Shown: in pieces, positions 5,613 through 14,317 of the stretch
Position numbering within the stretch: position 1 is the stretch's first letter
How the letters are laid out: the number at the start of each line of letters is the position of its first letter
UHGV virus genome: UHGV-0064133
Strand: one strand, 5' to 3'
Source: a virus
DNA length: 14,317 nt
Program-made: the position numbers and the translations under genes
Notes under the pieces: model-generated
Database searches by the model: none
Told to the model about the DNA's origin: nothing
The model's input: only the letters and a program-made list of their open reading frames with translations

Positions 5613-6374
5613 ATGACACAGTTTCAACTTGCATTAATCGCCAGAGAAGTTGATGGAGAAGTCATCCATCTTCGCACCAAAGACGGTTACATCAATGCCA
5701 CCGCAATGTGCAAGTCTGCTGGGAAGCTACTTGCTGACTATACACGACTAAAAACAACGCAAGATTTTTTTGATGAATTATCCCGCGATATGGGGATTCC
5801 CATATCGGAATTAATTCAATCATTTAAAGGCGGAAGAGCAGAGAATCAAGGGACTTGGGTTCATCCAGACATCGCAATTAACTTAGCTCAGTGGCTATCT
5901 CCAAAATTTGCAGTGCAAGTATCGAGATGGGTGCGTGAGTGGATGTCAGGCGAAAGAGCGCCTGCCGAACTCCCTATCCACCTTAAGCGGTATATGACAA
6001 ACCGAGGCAGGGTTCCTCATACGCACTTTTCTATGCTTAATGAACTGACGTTTAACCTGGTTGCGCCACTTGAGCAGGCAGGATATACGCTGCCAGAAAA
6101 AATGGTCCCTGATATTTCAGAAGGTAGGGTTTTCTCGCAATGGCTTCGTGAAAACCGGGGTGTTGAGCCGAAGACGTTCCCAACATATAACCATGAGTAC
6201 CCAGATGGCCGGACATTCCCGGTACGTCTATACCCAAACGAATATCTTGCAGATTTCAAACAACACTTCAACGAAGTGTGGCTGCCTCAGTACGCTCCTA
6301 AATATTTTGCAGAACGAGACCAAAGGGCATTGACGTTGATTGAGAAAATCATGTTGCCTGACCTTGATTCCTAA
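5613..6374 (+). CDS. KilA-N domain protein with uncharacterised C-terminal domain (immunity-region cargo)
   Basis: N-terminal ~110 aa carry the KilA-N/APSES-like signature (YINATAMCKSAGK ... GTWVHPDIAINLAQWLSPKFAVQVSRWV); C-terminal ~140 aa (FPTYNHEYPDGRTFPVRLYPNEYLADFKQHF...) matches nothing I recognise. RBS AGGA; followed by a terminator hairpin. Confidence 0.7.
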   Translation: MTQFQLALIAREVDGEVIHLRTKDGYINATAMCKSAGKLLADYTRLKTTQDFFDELSRDMGIPISELIQSFKGGRAENQGTWVHPDIAINLAQWLSPKFAVQVSRWVREWMSGERAPAELPIHLKRYMTNRGRVPHTHFSMLNELTFNLVAPLEQAGYTLPEKMVPDISEGRVFSQWLRENRGVEPKTFPTYNHEYPDGRTFPVRLYPNEYLADFKQHFNEVWLPQYAPKYFAERDQRALTLIEKIMLPDLDS

Positions 6375-6382
6375 ATGTTATA

Positions 6383-6405
6383 CCCGGCCACCAAGCCGGG
6401 GTTTT
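6383..6405 (+). terminator. putative intrinsic terminator between convergent genes
   Basis: Stem cccggc (6383-6388) / gccggg (6395-6400), loop caccaa, followed by gtttta; lies 9 nt after the KilA-N stop and abuts the 3' end of the convergent small ORF. Confidence 0.5.
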
Positions 6406-6601
6406 ACTGCCCTTTCCGCACTATCTCAGCTGCATCCCTGTTCACACCCTTACCTATCACGTTTCCCGTTTCCTTCCGGTACCGTTCCAGCTTGTCGATG
6501 ATGTTTTGCTGGGTCATAGGTAAATCTGCCAGTGACAACTCCATGACCGCCCGCCCCATGGCGTGAACCATCATGTTCACTCTTTCTTCATCCAAGCCCA
6601 T
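6404..6601 (-). CDS. hypothetical small protein (65 aa) convergent with the KilA-N gene
   Basis: Strong RBS AAGGAG 6 nt upstream of ATG 6601-6599 on the minus strand; hydrophilic sequence MGLDEERVNMMVHAMGRAVMELSLADLPMTQQNIIDKLERYRKETG...; sits just inside the OL-like operator cluster. No family recognised. Confidence 0.5.
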   Translation of the reverse strand: MGLDEERVNMMVHAMGRAVMELSLADLPMTQQNIIDKLERYRKETGNVIGKGVNRDAAEIVRKGQ

Positions 6602-6650
6602 TACCCACTCCTTTTTGATGTTTTTTTCAGCATATCACTTATGCCACCAA

Positions 6651-6742
6651 AAAATAAATCAACATAAAAATCAACAAGAAACGATTAAATCAACAAAATA
6701 AATCCACAAGGTGTTGACCTATAAATCCACATGATGTTTAAT
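6651..6742. promoter_or_regulatory. OL-like operator cluster with rightward PL-like promoter
   Basis: Five direct copies of AAATC[A/C]ACA (6656, 6668, 6687, 6700, 6723); -35 TTGACC (6714-6719), 17-bp spacer, -10 TTTAAT (6737-6742) on the plus strand, with the last operator copy inside the spacer. Confidence 0.55.
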
Positions 6743-6785
6743 TATCCCATCGAAACGAAACATCGACAGCTGAGCGAAGTTAGCC

Positions 6786-6819
6786 AGCAGCGGACAGCAA
6801 GTCGCCTGCTTTTTAACAA
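6786..6819 (+). promoter_or_regulatory. promoter-proximal hairpin plus boxA-like motif (nut-like site or attenuator)
   Basis: Imperfect hairpin agcagcggac/gtcgcctgct (6786-6810, 8 of 10 bp) followed by TTTTTAA; overlapping TGCTTTTTAACAA (6807-6819) differs at one position from the rrn boxA consensus TGCTCTTTAACAA as I recall it. Confidence 0.4.
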
Positions 6820-7158
6820 CATGCAGATTTACAGCGTCAATGACCTGTTAAGACCCCTACACGTAAACGTGCTGTATCACCGGGTGCGATCCGGTCGGTG
6901 AGAGAGTATCCCCGCGCGAGAGCGAGAACGGCGTGAGAACGGGCAACACTGGCAGGGAGTTGGCGCTGACCAATACAGGGAATGTTATGGGATGTGGTGA
7001 AGGGTTCATGGACGGGAATATGTCGCACGTAAAGCGGCGAGGCCCGAGGAGCTATTGCCGAAGATAAGTAGGCCGAATCGGGTCGAAATGGGTCTCCCAC
7101 CTACCACATCGCCAAAGCATTTCTCCCGCATCAGCGGGTAACGACAGAGGGTAAGGGG

Positions 7159-7455
7159 ATGATCGACGACATCAAGCGCATCGACTCAATGATAAATGCG
7201 CTTCGCAATATGAAACAGGACATCAAGCGTCAGCAGAAACTAAGTGAAATAAACAGTTTAGACCTGTCGCCGAAGCAAGCTCAAAAGCGCAATGCCGATG
7301 CTGACTGGATTGCGATGGAACAGATTAAGCGTCGGCATGAGCTGCACGCTCTGTCTGTTGAGCTTGGGTTCGCTGAGCGCCGGGAAAGTTATGCTCCATT
7401 TGAATTAACTGACGGGTGGCACCGATTCGACCACAAGCCGCGCGAACCTCAATAG
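7159..7455 (+). CDS. hypothetical protein (98 aa), first ORF of the early-left operon
   Basis: RBS AAGGGG directly upstream of the ATG; charged, coiled-coil-like sequence; followed by a weak hairpin and T-run. Sits where lambda has N, but has no N-terminal arginine-rich motif. Confidence 0.55.
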   Translation: MIDDIKRIDSMINALRNMKQDIKRQQKLSEINSLDLSPKQAQKRNADADWIAMEQIKRRHELHALSVELGFAERRESYAPFELTDGWHRFDHKPREPQ

Positions 7456-7477
7456 CCGCCTAACCAGCGGCTTTTTC
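7454..7477 (+). terminator. possible weak intrinsic terminator / RNA hairpin
   Basis: Stem agccgc (7454-7459) / gcggct (7467-7472), loop ctaacca, then ttttc; overlaps the stop codon of the 98-aa ORF. Confidence 0.3.
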
Positions 7478-7611: not shown

Positions 7612-7818
7612 ATGGTAAACCAGCACTACGGTACACAGACAGTAAACCGCGGCGCAGTTCAGCCGGGGATGCTCGTCAAACACAAGGATTCAACCTGGAC
7701 GGCATCAGCTAATGCTCGTGGTCGTTTGTATCTGCATCGCGGCGTTGAGATGACTTACACCAGGGATTTGCTGGTTGAAGTTTATCTGAACGGTCTGGGG
7801 AATGGCCTCAGCCATTAA
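7612..7818 (+). CDS. hypothetical small protein (68 aa); positional analogue of Rac kilR
   Basis: RBS AGAGGAAA upstream of the ATG; the kilR analogy is by position in Rac-like gene order only, sequence similarity not verified. Confidence 0.45.
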   Translation: MVNQHYGTQTVNRGAVQPGMLVKHKDSTWTASANARGRLYLHRGVEMTYTRDLLVEVYLNGLGNGLSH

Positions 7819-7851
7819 CGGAGAGTTGCCAAAACACTTTAAGGACAGGTG

Positions 7852-8010
7852 ATGAAAAAAGAATGTGGTTATTGCCACAAGCCTGTTGAAGAAGGCGCAG
7901 AAGTAAAGAGCACCTTGCTCTATCTCAACGGTTCGCAACTGGCACAGAAAGAAAAAGAATATTGCTCTAAGCAATGCGCTGAATACGACCAGATGGCGCA
8001 CGAAAGTTAA
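7852..8010 (+). CDS. small zinc-ribbon protein (52 aa), not in the ORF track; YdaE-like by position and Cys pattern
   Basis: Hand translation: MKKECGYCHKPVEEGAEVKSTLLYLNGSQLAQKEKEYCSKQCAEYDQMAHES; CxxC...CxxxC pattern; RBS AAGGACAGG 4 nt upstream of the ATG. Confidence 0.5.
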   Translation: MKKECGYCHKPVEEGAEVKSTLLYLNGSQLAQKEKEYCSKQCAEYDQMAHES

Positions 8011-8095
8011 ATAGCAGTCCTGAAATATGAAATGAAAAATTCGCCATTAATTTGGCGCGGCTTCTTACACCCTTAATTTAACAACTGGAGATTTT

Positions 8096-8383
8096 ATGGA
8101 AATCGTAAAAATCGAAATGAACCTGAAAGCAGTGAATAAAGAAGTGGCTGCATTCAACTGCGAGAAGAAAGTATCAGGCGTTATTCACTCAACTACAAAC
8201 GGTGAAACAACAGTCATTCTCGACGGTGGCTATGTGCTTGGCAAGTTTGATTGCCCGCACTGCGCCATTGAGGAGATCAGCTTGCTGGCACTCAAAATCA
8301 GCGATAGCGATTACGCCGGCTGGGGAACCTACCGTACATACAAGCAAGATTTTATGAATGAGGCGATCGTAGCCGTCAGTTAA
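8096..8383 (+). CDS. hypothetical protein (95 aa), immediately upstream of recE-like gene
   Basis: RBS GGAG upstream of the ATG; contains a CPHC motif; occupies the racC position of Rac-like prophages. No family assignment. Confidence 0.5.
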   Translation: MEIVKIEMNLKAVNKEVAAFNCEKKVSGVIHSTTNGETTVILDGGYVLGKFDCPHCAIEEISLLALKISDSDYAGWGTYRTYKQDFMNEAIVAVS

Positions 8384-8523
8384 GCGAAAGCCCACCGAAG
8401 TGGGCCCGCCATGTCCGGCCTCACCGACCAAAGTTACACCGGAAACAACATTAAAACCAAAGTTAACCCAATGGGCGCTATCAATGGTCCGGGGATTCTA
8501 ACACCCAAAAAAGAGGATCTCAC

Positions 8524-11433
8524 ATGGAATTTTTCCATCTGATAAAAGCCAGTCAGAAGTCTGGCAAGAAAGATGCAGTGATTTGGTTCACTGCGAAAAG
8601 TGTAGCGCGCGCCAATCTCCAACTCGATGTGGCACTGGAAGAAGCCGGAATTGAAGAAACTGGCCGCGGTAAAGATTATGCCAAACCAATCCGCACCGAT
8701 TTCCCGGTATATGACGACCTGCCGGAAGAAGGCGCAGTGGATTACACCTGGTGCGAACGCTACGAACTGCAGAACGATGACCGCACCTGGCTGCCAAAAG
8801 TCACAGCTGAAAACTCTGACGAGAAAACGGCTCAGACCGTTGATAGTCACATAACTACTGAGTCAACGCTGCCAGAAACCGCTGGCATCACGCTGGACGA
8901 ACACGACGACGACTCAACCCTCTACCCGGTAGTGCAGATGCCGTTTCGTAAGCAACTGCTTTCCCAGTTCACCGCCGACGAACTGCGCCACCACGTAACC
9001 CACGAAGAGTACGAAGCTATCGGCGCGCTGGAGATGGACACTGATAACAGTTACGTCCAGAACTTGCTGTTAGCTGCTGAGAACTGCCCGGAAGTGAAGG
9101 GTTACGACACCAAAGACCTGTGGCGCTACACCGATGCCATTCGCAAAGTGTTCAGCCAGGACAAGCGTCACGAACTCGCGCTGGTACTCCGTTTCACCAG
9201 AATGTGGGCGGCGACTGATTACATTGACCGTGGCATCCTGGCGCGTGAATGGGCCGCCGGTAATCGCATCAGTAGTGTGCAGCGTACTGATTCCGGCACT
9301 AATGCCGACGGCGGTTACGTCACTGACCGTGGACCTGACGCACACCACACACTGGACACTCTCGATTTAGAGATTGCGTGTGCCCTTCTGCCTATGGACT
9401 TCAACCACTTCGAGATCCCGGGCAGCATTCTTCGTCGCGCTAAAGAAATCGTGACCAAAAAAGAAGAACCATGGAAATCATGGAGCAACATCCTGCGCAA
9501 TCAGCCAGGCGTTCTGGGTGTTAACCGCACGGCTATTTTTAACCTGGTACGTATCGCACCGGAAAATATTCATTTAACTCCTGTCGCTCACCTGGAATTT
9601 GTTAACCAGACCATGACAGCCGCGTTCAATTCCGCGGTCGAGTTATTGCCGTTGCATGAGGCTGAACCCGCAGCACAGGAAATTCCCCAACCTGAAGGTA
9701 AGGAGTCTCCGCGCAAATCCTTCTGCACTCACGAAGAGAACCTGCAACGCGTGCGTGAAGAAGGAGCACGCCGCCGCGCAGAGGAAGCGGCAGCACAACC
9801 GCAGAAAGTCGAACAAGAACTGGTTAAAAATGTCGGCAACGGAATATTCGACGTTACGGCTTTGCTGCAGAACTCAGCAACTCATGGCACGAAAAAGGCT
9901 ACGGAGACCACCAGCAATGTGCAGGTTCAAGAAACTGTCAGTGATGAAAAACAAGCTGGTGATGAAGTACAGCCAGGCGAAAGCAGTCTGGAGTCTGGTG
10001 AAGAGTCAGATACCAGCCAGAAGGACGATGTAGACCAGAATACGGATTCTGTCGCCAAAAATAGCGATTCTGTAAGCCAAACCGAACCAGTTGCAGCACA
10101 AACCGAGCCAGAAGCGCAATCTGACGAACCAGCTGTTGTTTATCCCGCTTATTTCGAGCCAGGCCGCTATGAAGGGCTGCCAAACGAGGTTTACCACGCC
10201 GCCAACGGCATCAGCTCAACCCAGGTGAAAGATGCGCGCGTTTCGCTGATGTACTTCAATGCGCGCCACGTAGAGAAAACCATCGTCAAAGAGCGCTCAG
10301 CGGTGCTGGACATGGGCAACTTGGTGCATGCGCTGGCGTTGCAGCCTGAACTACTGGACGCAGAATTCAGCGTTGAACCGGTGATCCCTGAAGGCGCATT
10401 CACAACGGCCGCGACCCTGCGCGCCTTTATCGATGAGCACAATGCCAGCCTGCCGGCGCTGCTGTCTGCCGACGACATCAAGGTGTTACTGGAAGAGTAC
10501 AACGCCACCCTGCCGCCGCAGGTTCCGCTTGGCGCTAACCTGGAAGAAACGGCACAGAACTATATGGCGCTGCCAGCTGACTTCCAGCGTATTGATGGTG
10601 ACCAGAAGCAGACGGCGACGGCAATGAAGGCATGCATTAAAGAGTACAACGCCACCCTGCCGCCGCCGGTTAAAACCAGCGGCAGCCGTGACGCGCTGCT
10701 GGAGCAGTTGGCAATCATCAACCCTGACCTTGTGGCTCAGGAAGCACAGAAACCGGCACCACTGAAAGTGTCCGGTACCAAAGCAGACATGATCCAGGCC
10801 GTGAAGGCAGTCAAACCAGATGCCGTATTTGCCGACGAACTGCTGGATGCCTGGCGCGATAACCCGGAAGGAAAAGTGCTGGTCACCCGCCAGCAGCTGA
10901 GCACCGCGCTGAATATTCAAAAAGCGCTTCTGGCACACCCGACCGCCGGCATGCTGCTGACCCACCCTAGCCGAGCCGTTGAGGTGAGCTACTTTGGTTT
11001 TGACGAGGAGACGGGCTTGGAAGTTCGTGTGCGCCCTGACCTTGAGATCGACCTGGATGGCGTGCGTATAGGTGCAGACCTGAAAACCATCAGCATGTGG
11101 AATGTTAAGCAGGAAAGCCTGCGCGCCAGGCTACACCGGGAAATTATTGAACGTGATTATCACCTGAGCGCGGCTATGTACTGCGAAACCGCAGCGCTGG
11201 ATCAGTTCTTCTGGATTTTCGTCAACAAAGACGAGAACTACCACTGGATCGCCATCATCGAGGCATCCGCTGAACTACTGGAGCTGGGTATGCTCGAGTA
11301 CCGCAAAGCGATGCGCAATATCGCAACCGGATTCGACACAGGTGAATGGCCAGCGCCAATCACTGCTGACTACACCGACGAACTGAACGACTTCGACCTG
11401 CGCCGCCTTGAAGCGCTGCGTACTCAGGCATAA
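8524..11433 (+). CDS. recE: RecE-like exodeoxyribonuclease VIII (large 5'-3' dsDNA exonuclease with C-terminal PD-(D/E)XK domain)
   Basis: N-terminal DAVIWFTAKS...FPVYDDLPEEGAVDYTWCERYEL and DYIDRGILAREWAAGNRISSVQRTDSGTNADGGYVTDRG match what I recall of E. coli RecE; C-terminal RPDLEIDLDGVRIGADLKT fits the PD-(D/E)XK nuclease motif; RBS AAGAGGA. Confidence 0.8.
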   Translation: MEFFHLIKASQKSGKKDAVIWFTAKSVARANLQLDVALEEAGIEETGRGKDYAKPIRTDFPVYDDLPEEGAVDYTWCERYELQNDDRTWLPKVTAENSDEKTAQTVDSHITTESTLPETAGITLDEHDDDSTLYPVVQMPFRKQLLSQFTADELRHHVTHEEYEAIGALEMDTDNSYVQNLLLAAENCPEVKGYDTKDLWRYTDAIRKVFSQDKRHELALVLRFTRMWAATDYIDRGILAREWAAGNRISSVQRTDSGTNADGGYVTDRGPDAHHTLDTLDLEIACALLPMDFNHFEIPGSILRRAKEIVTKKEEPWKSWSNILRNQPGVLGVNRTAIFNLVRIAPENIHLTPVAHLEFVNQTMTAAFNSAVELLPLHEAEPAAQEIPQPEGKESPRKSFCTHEENLQRVREEGARRRAEEAAAQPQKVEQELVKNVGNGIFDVTALLQNSATHGTKKATETTSNVQVQETVSDEKQAGDEVQPGESSLESGEESDTSQKDDVDQNTDSVAKNSDSVSQTEPVAAQTEPEAQSDEPAVVYPAYFEPGRYEGLPNEVYHAANGISSTQVKDARVSLMYFNARHVEKTIVKERSAVLDMGNLVHALALQPELLDAEFSVEPVIPEGAFTTAATLRAFIDEHNASLPALLSADDIKVLLEEYNATLPPQVPLGANLEETAQNYMALPADFQRIDGDQKQTATAMKACIKEYNATLPPPVKTSGSRDALLEQLAIINPDLVAQEAQKPAPLKVSGTKADMIQAVKAVKPDAVFADELLDAWRDNPEGKVLVTRQQLSTALNIQKALLAHPTAGMLLTHPSRAVEVSYFGFDEETGLEVRVRPDLEIDLDGVRIGADLKTISMWNVKQESLRARLHREIIERDYHLSAAMYCETAALDQFFWIFVNKDENYHWIAIIEASAELLELGMLEYRKAMRNIATGFDTGEWPAPITADYTDELNDFDLRRLEALRTQA
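10435..10666 (+). repeat. in-frame internal repeats within the recE-like gene
   Basis: Exact 25-bp repeat gagtacaacgccaccctgccgccgc at 10495-10519 and 10642-10666 (147 bp apart, 49 codons), plus a degenerate copy gagcacaatgccagcctgccggcgc at 10435-10459; peptide-level repeats EHNASLPA / EYNATLPP / EYNATLPP. Confidence 0.65.
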
Positions 11434-11438
11434 GGGGA

Positions 11439-12557
11439 ATGATGATGGAAAACACGAATATCGTAACCGCTGAGCAGCAGACTCCAAACACGATCTCAGC
11501 CAGCAATGCCATTTTCAACGTGCAGGCTTTAACCCAGCTTCAGTCTGTCGCCGGGTTGATGGCACAGGCAGCCGTAACGGTGCCTGAGCACCTCCGCGGC
11601 AATCCGGCAGACTGCATGGCCATCATCATGCAGGCGATGCAGTGGGGTATGAACCCTTACGCCGTGGCGCAAAAGACGCACCTGGTTAACGGTGTCCTGG
11701 GATACGAAGCGCAACTGGTTAATGCGGTGATCTCCAGCTCAAACGCCATCGTTGGCCGCTTTCACTATGAGTACGAGGGCGACTGGTCGAAATGTGCCAG
11801 CAGCCGCGAGATAACCGTTAAAAAGCCTGCGAAAGGTGGCGGGACGTACGACAAGAAAGAAATGGTACGCGGTTGGGAAAGTGCTGATGAACAAGGACTG
11901 TCGGTACGGGTAGGTGCCGTTATTCGCGGTGAAAGTGATATCACCTGGGGAGAGCCTGTTTTCCTCTCCAGCGTAATCACACGTAATTCTCCACTTTGGG
12001 TATCAAACCCGAAACAGCAGATCGCTTATCTGGCACTCAAATACTGGGCGCGCCTGTATTGCCCTGCAGTTGTTCTTGGTGTGTACACCCCTGATGAGAT
12101 TGAACAGCGCACAGAAAAAGAGATCAACCCAACGCCGCAACGCGTTAGCCTGGCTGATATCTCAGGTGACACCGTCACAACCACGCAAAGCGCACAGGAA
12201 TCGTCGGTAAATGTCGACTCTCTTGCCGATGATTTCCGCGAACGCATCGAATCTGCTCAGGACGTGGATAGCGCCAAATCGCTGCGTGCCGACATTGAAA
12301 CGGCGAAAGCTACGCTGGGATCCGCACTATTCACCGAGCTGAAAAACAAAGCCGTAAAGCGTTATTACCTAGTGGATGCACGCAACAAGGTTGAGGAGGC
12401 TATTAAATCCCTGCCCCAGCCCGACGAGCCGCATGCAGCCGAACGGTTCGCTGAAGCCGAGCGCATGCTTGCATCTTCAAAGCGTCACTTAGGCGATGAA
12501 CTGCACGATCAATTCAGCATCACCCTGGCGGATATGAAACCGGAATACGTGGCCTGA
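11439..12557 (+). CDS. RecT/Redbeta(Bet)-family single-strand annealing protein (probable)
   Basis: Directly downstream of the recE-like gene (5-nt gap); segment NPADCMAIIMQAMQWGMNPYAVAQKTHLVNGVLGYEAQ resembles the Redbeta/RecT core (compare lambda Bet DAQFIALLIVANQYGLNPWTKEIYAFP); three consecutive ATGs at the start, true start may be 11442 or 11445. Confidence 0.6.
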   Translation: MMMENTNIVTAEQQTPNTISASNAIFNVQALTQLQSVAGLMAQAAVTVPEHLRGNPADCMAIIMQAMQWGMNPYAVAQKTHLVNGVLGYEAQLVNAVISSSNAIVGRFHYEYEGDWSKCASSREITVKKPAKGGGTYDKKEMVRGWESADEQGLSVRVGAVIRGESDITWGEPVFLSSVITRNSPLWVSNPKQQIAYLALKYWARLYCPAVVLGVYTPDEIEQRTEKEINPTPQRVSLADISGDTVTTTQSAQESSVNVDSLADDFRERIESAQDVDSAKSLRADIETAKATLGSALFTELKNKAVKRYYLVDARNKVEEAIKSLPQPDEPHAAERFAEAERMLASSKRHLGDELHDQFSITLADMKPEYVA

Positions 12558-12595
12558 CGAGACCGGGAGGGGTAACCCTCCCTCAAGGAGATTAT

Positions 12596-12838
12596 ATGCG
12601 ACTGATCAATCGAGGAAGTAAGCAATCACCTTTAGCTCGCCAAGCATGCGACATCGCGCTGGCAGCTCACTTGCAAACATATGGCGACTATGGGCGAAGC
12701 AAGATGAAAGAGACTTATACGGTGAAGGTTGAAGGCGTGAAAGTCTGGGATGAGCGTTTGAACCGAAAGGCTACCTACGTGGCCACAGCGATGACCGGCA
12801 TGCGCCGTCTCCGCTCCCTGCCCGGGCAGGTTGGTTGA
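12596..12838 (+). CDS. hypothetical protein (80 aa)
   Basis: Strong RBS AAGGAG 5 nt upstream of the ATG; preceded by a GC hairpin (12565-12582); no family recognised. Confidence 0.5.
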   Translation: MRLINRGSKQSPLARQACDIALAAHLQTYGDYGRSKMKETYTVKVEGVKVWDERLNRKATYVATAMTGMRRLRSLPGQVG

Positions 12839-12879
12839 AAAAGATTTTGAATGGCCCGAACGGGCAACTGGAGAGAGCT

Positions 12880-13077
12880 ATGGATGATATTTTGGTAACG
12901 TCAGACCTGACCAGTCGCTACAAAATTTCACGCAAAACCCTTTGGTCATGGCAAAGTGCAGACACAATGCCTCGGGGCTTCGTATGCCCGTTCCCACCCC
13001 CTGACTGGCCCGGCAACCCTAACCGCTGGCGCTCTGAGTCAATCAAAGAGTGGGAGGATAAAAAGAAGATAAATTAA
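12880..13077 (+). CDS. AlpA/excisionase-like small DNA-binding protein
   Basis: [24 protein letters not shown] resembles the AlpA/Xis-type HTH N-terminus; start set at ATG 12880 (RBS GGAGAG upstream) rather than the track start at 12835; adjacent to the integrase. Confidence 0.6.
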
Positions 13078-14267
13078 CTGAAGGGCTCTCCGATGATCTC
13101 TTCAAGATGGCTCTGCCAAACGCGGAGCCAGTGTTTCTGATCATCGATATAGTCATGAAGGTTGTAATGCGCCATAACCCCCACCATCTGATGCCCGAGC
13201 AGCTTTTCAATTACGTGCGGCGGGCAACCTAACTCAGAGAGATTTGTGGCTATCGTCCGCCTCATATCATGAAGCGACCACTCTGCCATACCTGTTCCAT
13301 TCCAAATAGAACGGGCGTAATTGGATGCCACAGGTGAATGAACGGGCGAATCTTTGATCCCGCCATCAATTTTACGTTGTGAAGTCACCAGGTGATTGGT
13401 GTTTATTTTCTTGAGGTGATTTCTGACCAGGTTAACGGCGGCGTCTGAGAGTCCCCTTCTAATATGTACCCGAGTTTTATAACTGCCCGCAGGCACGACC
13501 CACTCATTATCATCCAATCGAAACCATGATCTCTCACTAAGTCGAATCTCAGCCGTACGGCATCCGGTAAGCATAATAAATTTCACCAGGAAAACGGACT
13601 CTATCGACATATGGCTTTTCAACCACTGATAGATTTTGCGCAGATCGTCATCGTCCATCCTGCGAGTTCTCTTTTTAGGCTTTTGCCCGACATCAGATGG
13701 CAGTAATCCCTCGAGTGGGTTTGAGGCGATCACACTTCTGTTAACGCAGAACCTAAACGCCCGTTTGCACAGCGAAAGCATGTAATGAGCCATCACCCTG
13801 CTTTCTATAGAATCGAAGACGTTGATCCAGTGCATTTTCGCTGTGTTATCGACTTTGACATTCTTCATCGGTTCGGCGATATGTTTCTCAAACACCTGGC
13901 GATAGTAATCGACTTTAACTAGCCCGTTAGCGATACAGTGCCTTTCAATCCAGTAATTGAACGCTTCGGCAACGGACATCGCTTCCTGTCGGGTCTGCTT
14001 ATCCAGCTTCACCTGCTCTCGCGGATCCAGTCCCTCAGTTAACCAGTTTCTGAATTGTTGGCGACGCTCTCTTGCCTGGGTGATACTCATTGCAGGATAA
14101 TCACCAACATTGAGTTTTACCGCTTTACCGGCCCAGCGATACCGATAGAAAAATGATATTTTTCCGGCCTGGCTGATTCTGGCGTTGAGCCCGTGCGAAT
14201 CAGAAATAATCTCGATATCATCTCTTTTCTTGCCGAGCGCCTTCCTGAGCTTTGTGTCGGTGATCAT
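13074..14267 (-). CDS. int: tyrosine recombinase / phage integrase (P4-type, N-terminal arm-binding domain)
   Basis: N-terminus [13 protein letters not shown]...[24 protein letters not shown] matches the P4-like integrase arm-binding domain; C-terminal catalytic region HDMRRT...[18 protein letters not shown] with R, H-x-x-R and Y. Start chosen at ATG 14267 by analogy with IntS/IntA N-termini; the track ORF extends to 14312. Confidence 0.9.
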
Positions 14268-14317
14268 TGAATGGGTACACATTTTTGTTTTTGGGTACAC
14301 AAAAGTGTACACAAAGT

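Follow-up and report, generated by a model that had tools for sequence, protein, structure and literature searches.

Positions 6820–7158 of the viral genome UHGV-0064133, a stretch of 14,317 nt that was analysed whole and is called the window here, probably form the untranslated leader of the early-left (pL) transcript of a phi80-like prophage and act in cis as a two-domain regulatory RNA, serving nut (N utilization) assembly first and RNase III processing second. The leader is a known kind of regulatory RNA and not a new one: a nutL hairpin domain, which we call domain A, is followed by module B, a counterpart of the hairpin in the N leader of phage lambda. Its position, its non-coding nature, its conserved structure and the homology of its closing stem with that of lambda are observations. 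A first-pass annotation made from the letters of the window had described an unexplained non-coding stretch of about 340 nt at this place. A real non-coding leader it is, but it is not unexplained, as it lies between the annotated pL and N of phi80, overlaps a fragment annotated as nutL (6770–7047) and contains a distal hairpin of a type studied in lambda.

The identity of the stretch follows from its close relatives. BLAST against phage records revealed 99.3% identity of window 6600–7460 with phage phi80 (JX871397, M11919, X13065), and the phi80 prophage of DH5alpha and DH10B is likewise 99.3% identical across this interval; 6820–7158 is therefore the pL-to-N leader. In the 1985 phi80 record M11919, the 'nutL regulatory signal' covers window positions 6770–7047. 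A consensus promoter scan did not pick up pL, because the -10 hexamer lacks the A at position 2. The following features were carried over from GenBank record JX871397 onto window positions or come from folding, as indicated for each.

6657–6742: OL (left) operators, from the phi80 annotation
6714–6742, plus strand: pL promoter, -35 TTGACC at 6714–6719 and -10 TTTAAT at 6737–6742, from JX871397
about 6749, plus strand: pL transcription start, from the phi80 annotation, giving a leader of about 410 nt up to the N AUG
6807–6815, plus strand: nutL boxA, as annotated in phi80
6860–6871, plus strand: nutL core, as annotated in phi80
6978–7124, plus strand: module B, the N-leader hairpin, from P1 arms that match the lambda N leader, covariation and fold
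7125–7138, plus strand: small hairpin CCCGC-AUCA-GCGGG between stem P1 of module B and the N ribosome-binding site, from the fold
7139–7161, plus strand: translation initiation region of N, with Shine-Dalgarno (SD) sequence GAGGG at 7147–7151 and AUG at 7159, predicted unpaired in the fold
7159–7455, plus strand: N (98 aa), a phi80 coding sequence
7454–7476: terminator tL1A, from the phi80 annotation

The stretch is devoid of a credible coding frame, as had been proposed from the letters: within its 339 nt each of the six frames contains 3–5 stops, and there is no family match. The in-frame TGA codons at 6899 and 6998 lie where the first-pass annotation had placed them, and the first open reading frame (ORF) with support from a ribosome-binding site starts at 7159 (98 aa). 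The long minus-strand frame that it had set aside as an artefact, 6837–7100, is indeed GTG-started, 87 aa long, rich in Pro, Ala and Arg and without gene support. The G-richness of the plus strand keeps this frame open; two recombination junctions fall within it, and its counterpart in phage PA2 shows five amino-acid changes and one stop among the differences tallied by eye. The ORFs of at least 40 aa inside 6820–7158 are the following.

6837–7100, minus strand: GTG start, 87 aa
6857–7009, minus strand
7006–7131, minus strand
6933–7067, plus strand: GTG start, 44 aa

A further plus-strand ORF, 6731–6901, enters the region from upstream of the transcription start. Searching all ORFs of the region against Pfam and PHROGs returned none at E<=0.01, and the chance-level listings both concern 6933–7067 (RCC1_2, E 0.034; phrog_34658, E 0.29). 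Neither the GenBank phi80 record nor the NCBI Prokaryotic Genome Annotation Pipeline (PGAP) on the DH10B phi80 prophage calls a coding sequence in the region. The contrast in composition that had first drawn attention to the stretch was reproduced, with a GC content of 0.563 in 6820–7158 vs 0.291 in the operator region and 0.51 in the whole window. The enrichment in purines is equally real (0.587; 49 of 1398 equal-sized segments are as high, the top 3.5%), with base shares of 0.327 for G and 0.236 for C. The composition is thus unusual, not extreme.

The first-pass annotation had offered a structured leader or regulatory RNA as one option and had suggested folding and covariance analysis across relatives; the outcome bears this option out. 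Two large hairpin domains are present, of which the distal one, module B, has strong covariation and a closing stem homologous to that of lambda, and compensatory changes are thin in domain A. For module B, we assembled an alignment of 33 distinct sequences (A3) and counted pairs for a structure that we specified. In A3, 97.6% of cells are paired and 9 pairs show compensatory changes, which 0 of 500 shuffles reach, and slid controls yield 37–54%. The individual stems contribute as follows.

6982–6999 / 7102–7120: P1, 17 pairs in A3, 5 with compensatory changes, 96.6% of cells paired
7021–7026 / 7034–7039: P2, one-sided wobble changes only
7041–7046 / 7079–7084: P3, 100% paired, 3 covarying pairs
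7057–7059 / 7071–7073: P4, one C-G to G-C flip
7089–7092 / 7096–7099: P5, uncertain, not distinguishable from an alternative long-range helix

In the window itself, the folded P1 reaches 6978–6999 / 7102–7124, comprising 21 bp with one mismatch and one bulge, and P1 was recovered in six independent single-sequence folds, namely those of five module B variants and of lambda. The variants of P3 illustrate how pairing is kept (GGCCUG/CAGGUC, GGCCCG/CGGGUC, GGCUCG/CGAGUC, GGCAU/AUGUC), and in a metagenome variant (L207) this stem is lengthened to 9 bp with more compensatory changes. RNAalifold proposed a different interior on A3; the fully paired P3 with its three covarying pairs fits better. A covariance model built from A3 found one copy in the window, at 6982–7120, with 159.9 bits. 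Domain A and module B are conserved structures.

We then compared module B with the leader of lambda. There, the leader reads GGCUUUGGGGUGUGUGAUACG, an interior and CUGCCACACACCACCAAAGCUAACUGACAGGAGAAUCCAGAUG, and HK97 and 933W carry CUUUGGGGUGUGGUG and CCACACCACCAAAG around an interior different from lambda's. The lambda arms CUUUGGGGUGUG and CACACCACCAAAG end about 20 nt before the N AUG and are common to HK97, 933W and the window; in an alignment that also takes in Louie, the five sequences match along both arms, and lambda departs from the others in its interior. A lambda-type nutL and a lambda-type N occur together with the HK97-type interior in phages Louie and 683R2. The arms of the window, UAUGGGAUGUGGUG and CACCUACCACAUCGCCAAAG, differ from those of lambda and HK97 by compensatory changes. 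In both systems a long imperfect duplex closes an interior of about 100 nt, and the 21-bp P1 of the window amounts to about two helical turns. The order of elements agrees as well: pL (6714–6742) and boxA (6807–6819) are followed by the hairpin (6978–7124) and the AUG (7159), so that here, as in lambda, the hairpin comes between nutL and the ribosome-binding site of the first pL gene and lies close to the latter. We take RNase III to cut lambda pL RNA near +88 and +197, which by count lie within the two arms.

On several points the window departs from lambda. Its interior is unrelated in sequence, the first gene is not a lambda-type N, and cleavage is predicted here by analogy. The leader of lambda is 222 nt long and that of the window about 410 nt, the difference being due to the 137-nt hairpin domain between boxA and module B. 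Judged by its stem sequence and position, module B is the counterpart of the RNase III-cut lambda N-leader hairpin. In the part of PMC5725501 that cites Wilson 1997 and 2002, lambda nutL is placed about 200 nt upstream of N, N and Nus factors at NutL are described as repressing N translation, and the intervening leader is called highly structured. Positive regulation of lambda N mRNA by RNase III is stated in a passage of PMC9032294 (citing Kameyama 1991), and the lambda N leader is named as an RNase III target in a passage of PMC5371410 (citing Steege 1987).

The closing arms also served to trace the distribution of the hairpin. When viral contigs were scanned for both arms around an interior of 85–115 nt of any sequence, 120 loci emerged, and the comparison of these with other loci resolved 42 distinct elements. 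Module B (132 nt) is the commonest interior and that of lambda (118 nt) the second, and several further unrelated ones exist. The viral loci in which unrelated interiors were seen between the CUUUGGGGUGUG/CACACCACCAAAG arms range from L012 to L177. At one locus (L077, minus strand, about 7760–7885) the interior ends in a tRNA T-arm-like GGGTTCAACTCCCGCCCGCACCA, and GGTAAGC occurs four times across the long leader and hairpin; ARAGORN found no tRNA, and the tRNA-like reading was dropped. Of 5426 complete E. coli genomes, 499 (~9%) contain module B, 933W-type and other Shiga toxin (Stx) prophages included, and in none of them is it annotated. The small RNAs AsxR and AgvB of enterohaemorrhagic E. 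coli prophages were considered for its identity and rejected, as they sit at the pR' moron site and not in the leader. First genes after module B include lambda N, HK97/933W N, other N genes with an arginine-rich motif (ARM), phi80 N, a gene for a ~200-aa protein and one for an acidic 87-aa protein, and several different boxB hairpins precede it. The interior of module B is ~90% identical in phages with non-alignable flanking sequences. Additional searches for diverged members added little: a further viral-contig scan returned five loci, and the one new locus examined among them (L188) carries an element identical to that of L073; the diverged L113 variant, used as a query in phage BLAST, yielded nothing new; and of 55 loci in a metagenome scan only L207 is a real member.

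An Rfam scan, also suggested by the first-pass annotation, assigned no family to the leader. At gathering thresholds the whole window gave a single match, isrB-like and located elsewhere, and a permissive scan of 6700–7250 listed chance matches to eukaryotic families, nothing below E = 0.1. No Rfam family covers module B, and lambda's own N leader has no Rfam match either.

The leader is a mosaic of three parts, namely domain A (6807–6968), module B (6982–7120) and a distal part with the small hairpin and the unstructured ribosome-binding region. BLAST against phage records showed 6616–6956 to be common to HK225 (98%), 6807–6994 to most Stx2a Oslovirus phages (94%) and 6807–7123 to PA2-type phages (95%). 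Positions 6988–7117 recur at 90.8% in HK97, HK106, 933W, Min27, 24B, P27 and many Stx1a and Stx2a phages, and 7112–7157 matches Enterobacter phages and HK639; the small hairpin 7125–7138 falls within this last tract and also occurs in L148, L149 and L152. The resulting junctions at ~6807, 6956, 6988–6994 and 7117–7123 are sharp. In HK97, the shared 130 nt stop 17 nt short of the N start codon; in the 933W-type immunity region the shared tract lies directly 3' of the annotated nutL; and in PA2 it begins at boxA, just downstream of a pL-like promoter. In Escherichia sp. ESNIH1 (L178, 1753–1905), whose N is 88% identical, a 50-aa ORF with a ribosome-binding site (MKTAHYYASRSQKF...) replaces domain A and module B, and this ORF bears no similarity to the leader of the window.

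At the 5' side, the boxA-like site noted in the first pass is genuine. The sequence TGCTTTTTAACAA at 6807–6819 is the sole match in the window, with 0.05 expected by chance, and agrees at 12 of 13 positions with TGCTCTTTAACAA, which we take to be the rrn boxA consensus; in PA2-type phages boxA reads TGCTCTTTAACAA, equal to this presumed consensus at 13 of 13. Domain A, which follows, contains the elements below.

6832–6968, plus strand: extended hairpin of domain A, 137 nt, G-rich, from the fold; inside the M11919 nutL fragment
6860–6871, plus strand: nutL core hairpin CACGTAAACGTG
6878–6900, plus strand: hairpin H2
6924–6931 and 6935–6942, plus strand: tandem GAGAACGG repeat

Its minimum free energy structure equals the centroid (-59.5 kcal/mol, z = -2.6) and is better than that of shuffled sequence. 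H2 has one compensatory pair (CACCG/CGGUG vs CAUCG/CGAUG), and across 5 lineages there are also three one-sided changes that keep pairing, the sequence being otherwise almost invariant. Domain A was found in 227 of 5426 complete E. coli genomes.

Domain A resembles the nut sites of lambdoid phages and the boxA of rrn leaders in that its boxA is close to the rrn consensus, hairpins follow, the site lies ~60 nt from the pL start, and phi80 records annotate it as nutL. Candidate boxB hairpins are those at 6860–6871 and 6878–6900; the first gene lacks an ARM, and the window is without a gene for an ARM-type N. Unlike in lambda, where we take the spacer to be ~8 nt, the domain A hairpin stands 40 nt from boxA, and its core is a 4-bp stem with a UAAA/AAAA loop instead of a GNRA-like pentaloop. 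Lambdoid nut sites differ further in having a cognate ARM peptide and a nutR, whereas domain A occurs in phages without the 98-aa protein and no second boxA or core hairpin (nutR) was found in the 14.3-kb window, which spans genes taken as cro, cII and replication genes from position and size. The put RNA of phage HK022 is a structured RNA just downstream of pL that mediates protein-independent antitermination and can replace N-nut function; domain A may be comparable, as it too occurs in phages without a recognisable N. The 8-mer CACGTAAA is found in both the nutL core (6860–6867) and the loop of P2 (7026–7033). We judged this repeat to be chance, because module B is common to phages without the phi80 nutL and, by our own estimate, 421 nt should contain about one such repeat.

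By analogy with lambda, boxA and the hairpins of domain A would assemble NusB/S10, other Nus factors and a phage factor on RNA polymerase, and the polymerase so assembled would resist terminators such as tL1 (7454–7472). Being G-rich, C-poor and highly paired, the leader would offer little for Rho to load on before the complex forms. RNase III would then cut the P1 duplex, thus freeing the first gene's mRNA from the nut RNA and leaving a short unstructured 5' end before the SD sequence (7147–7151) and the AUG (7159). The level at which the first gene is expressed and translated would thereby be tied to the RNase III level of the cell.

A number of observations weigh against this interpretation. 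In Hafnia phage yong1, Erwinia phage 59 and a Pectobacterium prophage, a homolog of phi80 'N' lies two genes 3' of a true lambda-type N, whose C-terminus reads GRQK.RGKSIPLI or similar (L186, 1010–1800; L182, 942–1791; L180, ~1556–2290); in yong1 and the Pectobacterium prophage, the arm-bearing hairpin precedes the lambda-type N itself. Moreover, operons of PA2/P13374-type Stx2a phages, HK225, L148/L149 and L152 begin with this leader, domain A and module B together, and neither a phi80-N homolog nor an ARM-type N was found in the compared stretches of these. Domain A may therefore be something other than the site recognised by the 98-aa 'N'. Domain A itself offers thin covariation support, one compensatory pair, because its homologs are 92–99% identical. 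The RNase III step would follow for module B from shared stem sequence and position, and the interior of module B is far more conserved (~90%) than a plain RNase III duplex needs. The interior may serve another purpose as well. The family of phi80 'N' proteins has no arginine-rich motif and no Pfam family, falls into a PHROG of unknown function, and has homologs that lie mid-operon without the leader in some phage genera, which are presumably virulent siphophages. The 98-aa family may not be an N-type antiterminator.

The conservation of the interior leads to the alternative that survives best, although we consider it unlikely: the interior of module B would be a functional RNA itself, either a trans-acting RNA of ~100–125 nt freed by RNase III or a platform to which a protein of host or phage binds; many lambdoid phages, Stx phages among them, carry it. 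The ~90% identity between phages with non-aligning flanks fits such a role, yet high identity may also reflect recent horizontal spread. P2, P3 and several unpaired stretches are kept even in the most diverged variants (L113, L118, L207), and the element is as widespread as 499 of 5426 complete E. coli genomes; on the other hand, lambda and other phages have unrelated interiors between the same arms, and no Rfam family or known motif matches. In P13374, moreover, the interior is deleted to a mini hairpin, and for P13374-type phages it is consequently dispensable.

In another alternative, which strikes us as quite unlikely, domain A would work without the 98-aa 'N', either as an rrn-like boxA with host Nus factors only or as a put-like RNA that modifies polymerase directly, protecting the leader and carrying polymerase past terminators. 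The near-consensus boxA (12 of 13 positions of the rrn consensus that we assume, 13 of 13 in PA2) argues for it, as does the retention of domain A at 92–98% identity in five contexts without recognisable N, though only a few kb were compared at some of these loci and an N gene could lie elsewhere there. The lack of a nutR, that is of a second boxA or core hairpin, in the rest of the window would fit, and PA2 has an intrinsic terminator between leader and first gene. Against these points stand the phi80 literature and records, which regard the 98-aa ORF as having the N function and place nutL on this fragment. Leaders with a phi80-type boxA and domain A were located as follows.

3880–4610 of L006: PA2
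2230–2714 of L008: P13374
1115–1440 of L190: HK225

PA2 and P13374 also show a promoter-like TTGACT-17-TATATT and an intrinsic terminator after the hairpin, before a Rha/Ash-type gene.

In the boldest reading, the leader with its rrn-type boxA, domain A and module B would be a cis-regulatory RNA cassette complete in itself and independent of a dedicated phage N, in which domain A is a new protein-independent or host-factor-only antitermination or anti-Rho RNA and the interior of module B a second functional RNA outside Rfam. We regard this as quite unlikely. If true, the cassette would stand at the start of the early-left operon in phi80-like phages, in HK225 and in the PA2/P13374 (O104:H4-type) Stx2a phages.

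The two-domain leader reading also has to be weighed against translation of a short regulatory peptide. A small plus-strand ORF lies inside module B:

7008–7067, plus strand: ATG at 7008, TAA at 7067, encoding MDGNMSHVKRRGPRSYCRR

It is highly improbable that the leader encodes such a peptide (MDGNMSHVKRRG...) and controls the downstream gene through its translation. Nearly all module B variants keep the start codon ATG and the first 12 codons of this upstream ORF, yet our hand count on A3 gave 13 events in these codons, of which 8 are non-synonymous, 4 synonymous and 1, in L134, nonsense. Synonymous changes occur at several third positions, but these sites lie in the P2 loop or at positions read as improving an RNA pair, in a helix that could not be told from its alternative. 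The stop position varies from 15 to >44 codons among variants, phi419 has a 10-nt deletion in the frame, and the bases that would form the SD sequence make up the loop of a small hairpin and vary (GGG, UGG, GGA or AGA). PHANOTATE-based and a second annotation call ORFs in the region, whereas PGAP calls nothing. Most likely, 7008–7067 is not a gene and the constraint acts on the RNA and not on a peptide.

Finally, the first-pass annotation had also allowed for a decayed gene; that the stretch is this or a recombination scar without function we hold to be the least probable explanation, since, for all the sharp junctions of the mosaic, the real 50-aa ORF in the pL leader of L178 and the ARM-type N that follows the hairpin directly in relatives and is missing in the window, no frame has protein similarity or a protein-family match, the minus-strand frame crosses junctions and has a stop in PA2, the small plus-strand ORF is without protein-level constraint, the leader yields no tblastn match to the L178 ORF, both domains are nearly unchanged across lineages with compensatory changes, and the leader folds better than shuffled sequence. 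A tblastn search of the whole window with the L178 leader ORF and six N proteins likewise gave nothing below E = 0.2.

With the two-domain leader as the preferred reading, a stretch that is blank in the records examined gains an annotation, namely a nutL domain and a predicted N-leader processing hairpin. The lambda N-leader hairpin thereby becomes one representative of a widespread modular element with fixed closing arms and interchangeable interiors, whose commonest form, module B, has good covariation support and is uncatalogued in Rfam. Should RNase III processing set the level of the early antiterminator as in lambda, the element would bear on the speed at which Stx prophages commit to lytic growth. 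That a phi80-type nut leader stands as an orphan in phages lacking a recognisable N gene is in itself a testable observation.

Outside the leader, a 65-aa ATG-started ORF on the minus strand (6404–6601) lies between a KilA-N-domain gene (5613–6374) and OL; it has no Pfam match and is called by PGAP in DH10B (WP_000362427.1) and not in the GenBank phi80 record. Downstream of N, the window (7612–14312) is not phi80-like. Genes for a RecE-like protein (8524–11433) and RecT (11439–12557), a DUF4060 gene and a minus-strand tyrosine integrase gene (13074–14312) lie 3' of N. Because this region is unlike phi80, the prophage is a mosaic of a phi80-type immunity region and a different, RecE/RecT-type recombination and integration module. 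Between an ORF at 8096–8383 and the RecE-like gene, the minus strand carries the match to isrB (RF01386, an Hfq-binding small RNA) at 8385–8482, which scores 38.2 bits vs a gathering score of 35 and includes the terminal hairpin GGGCCCAC-UUCG-GUGGGC.

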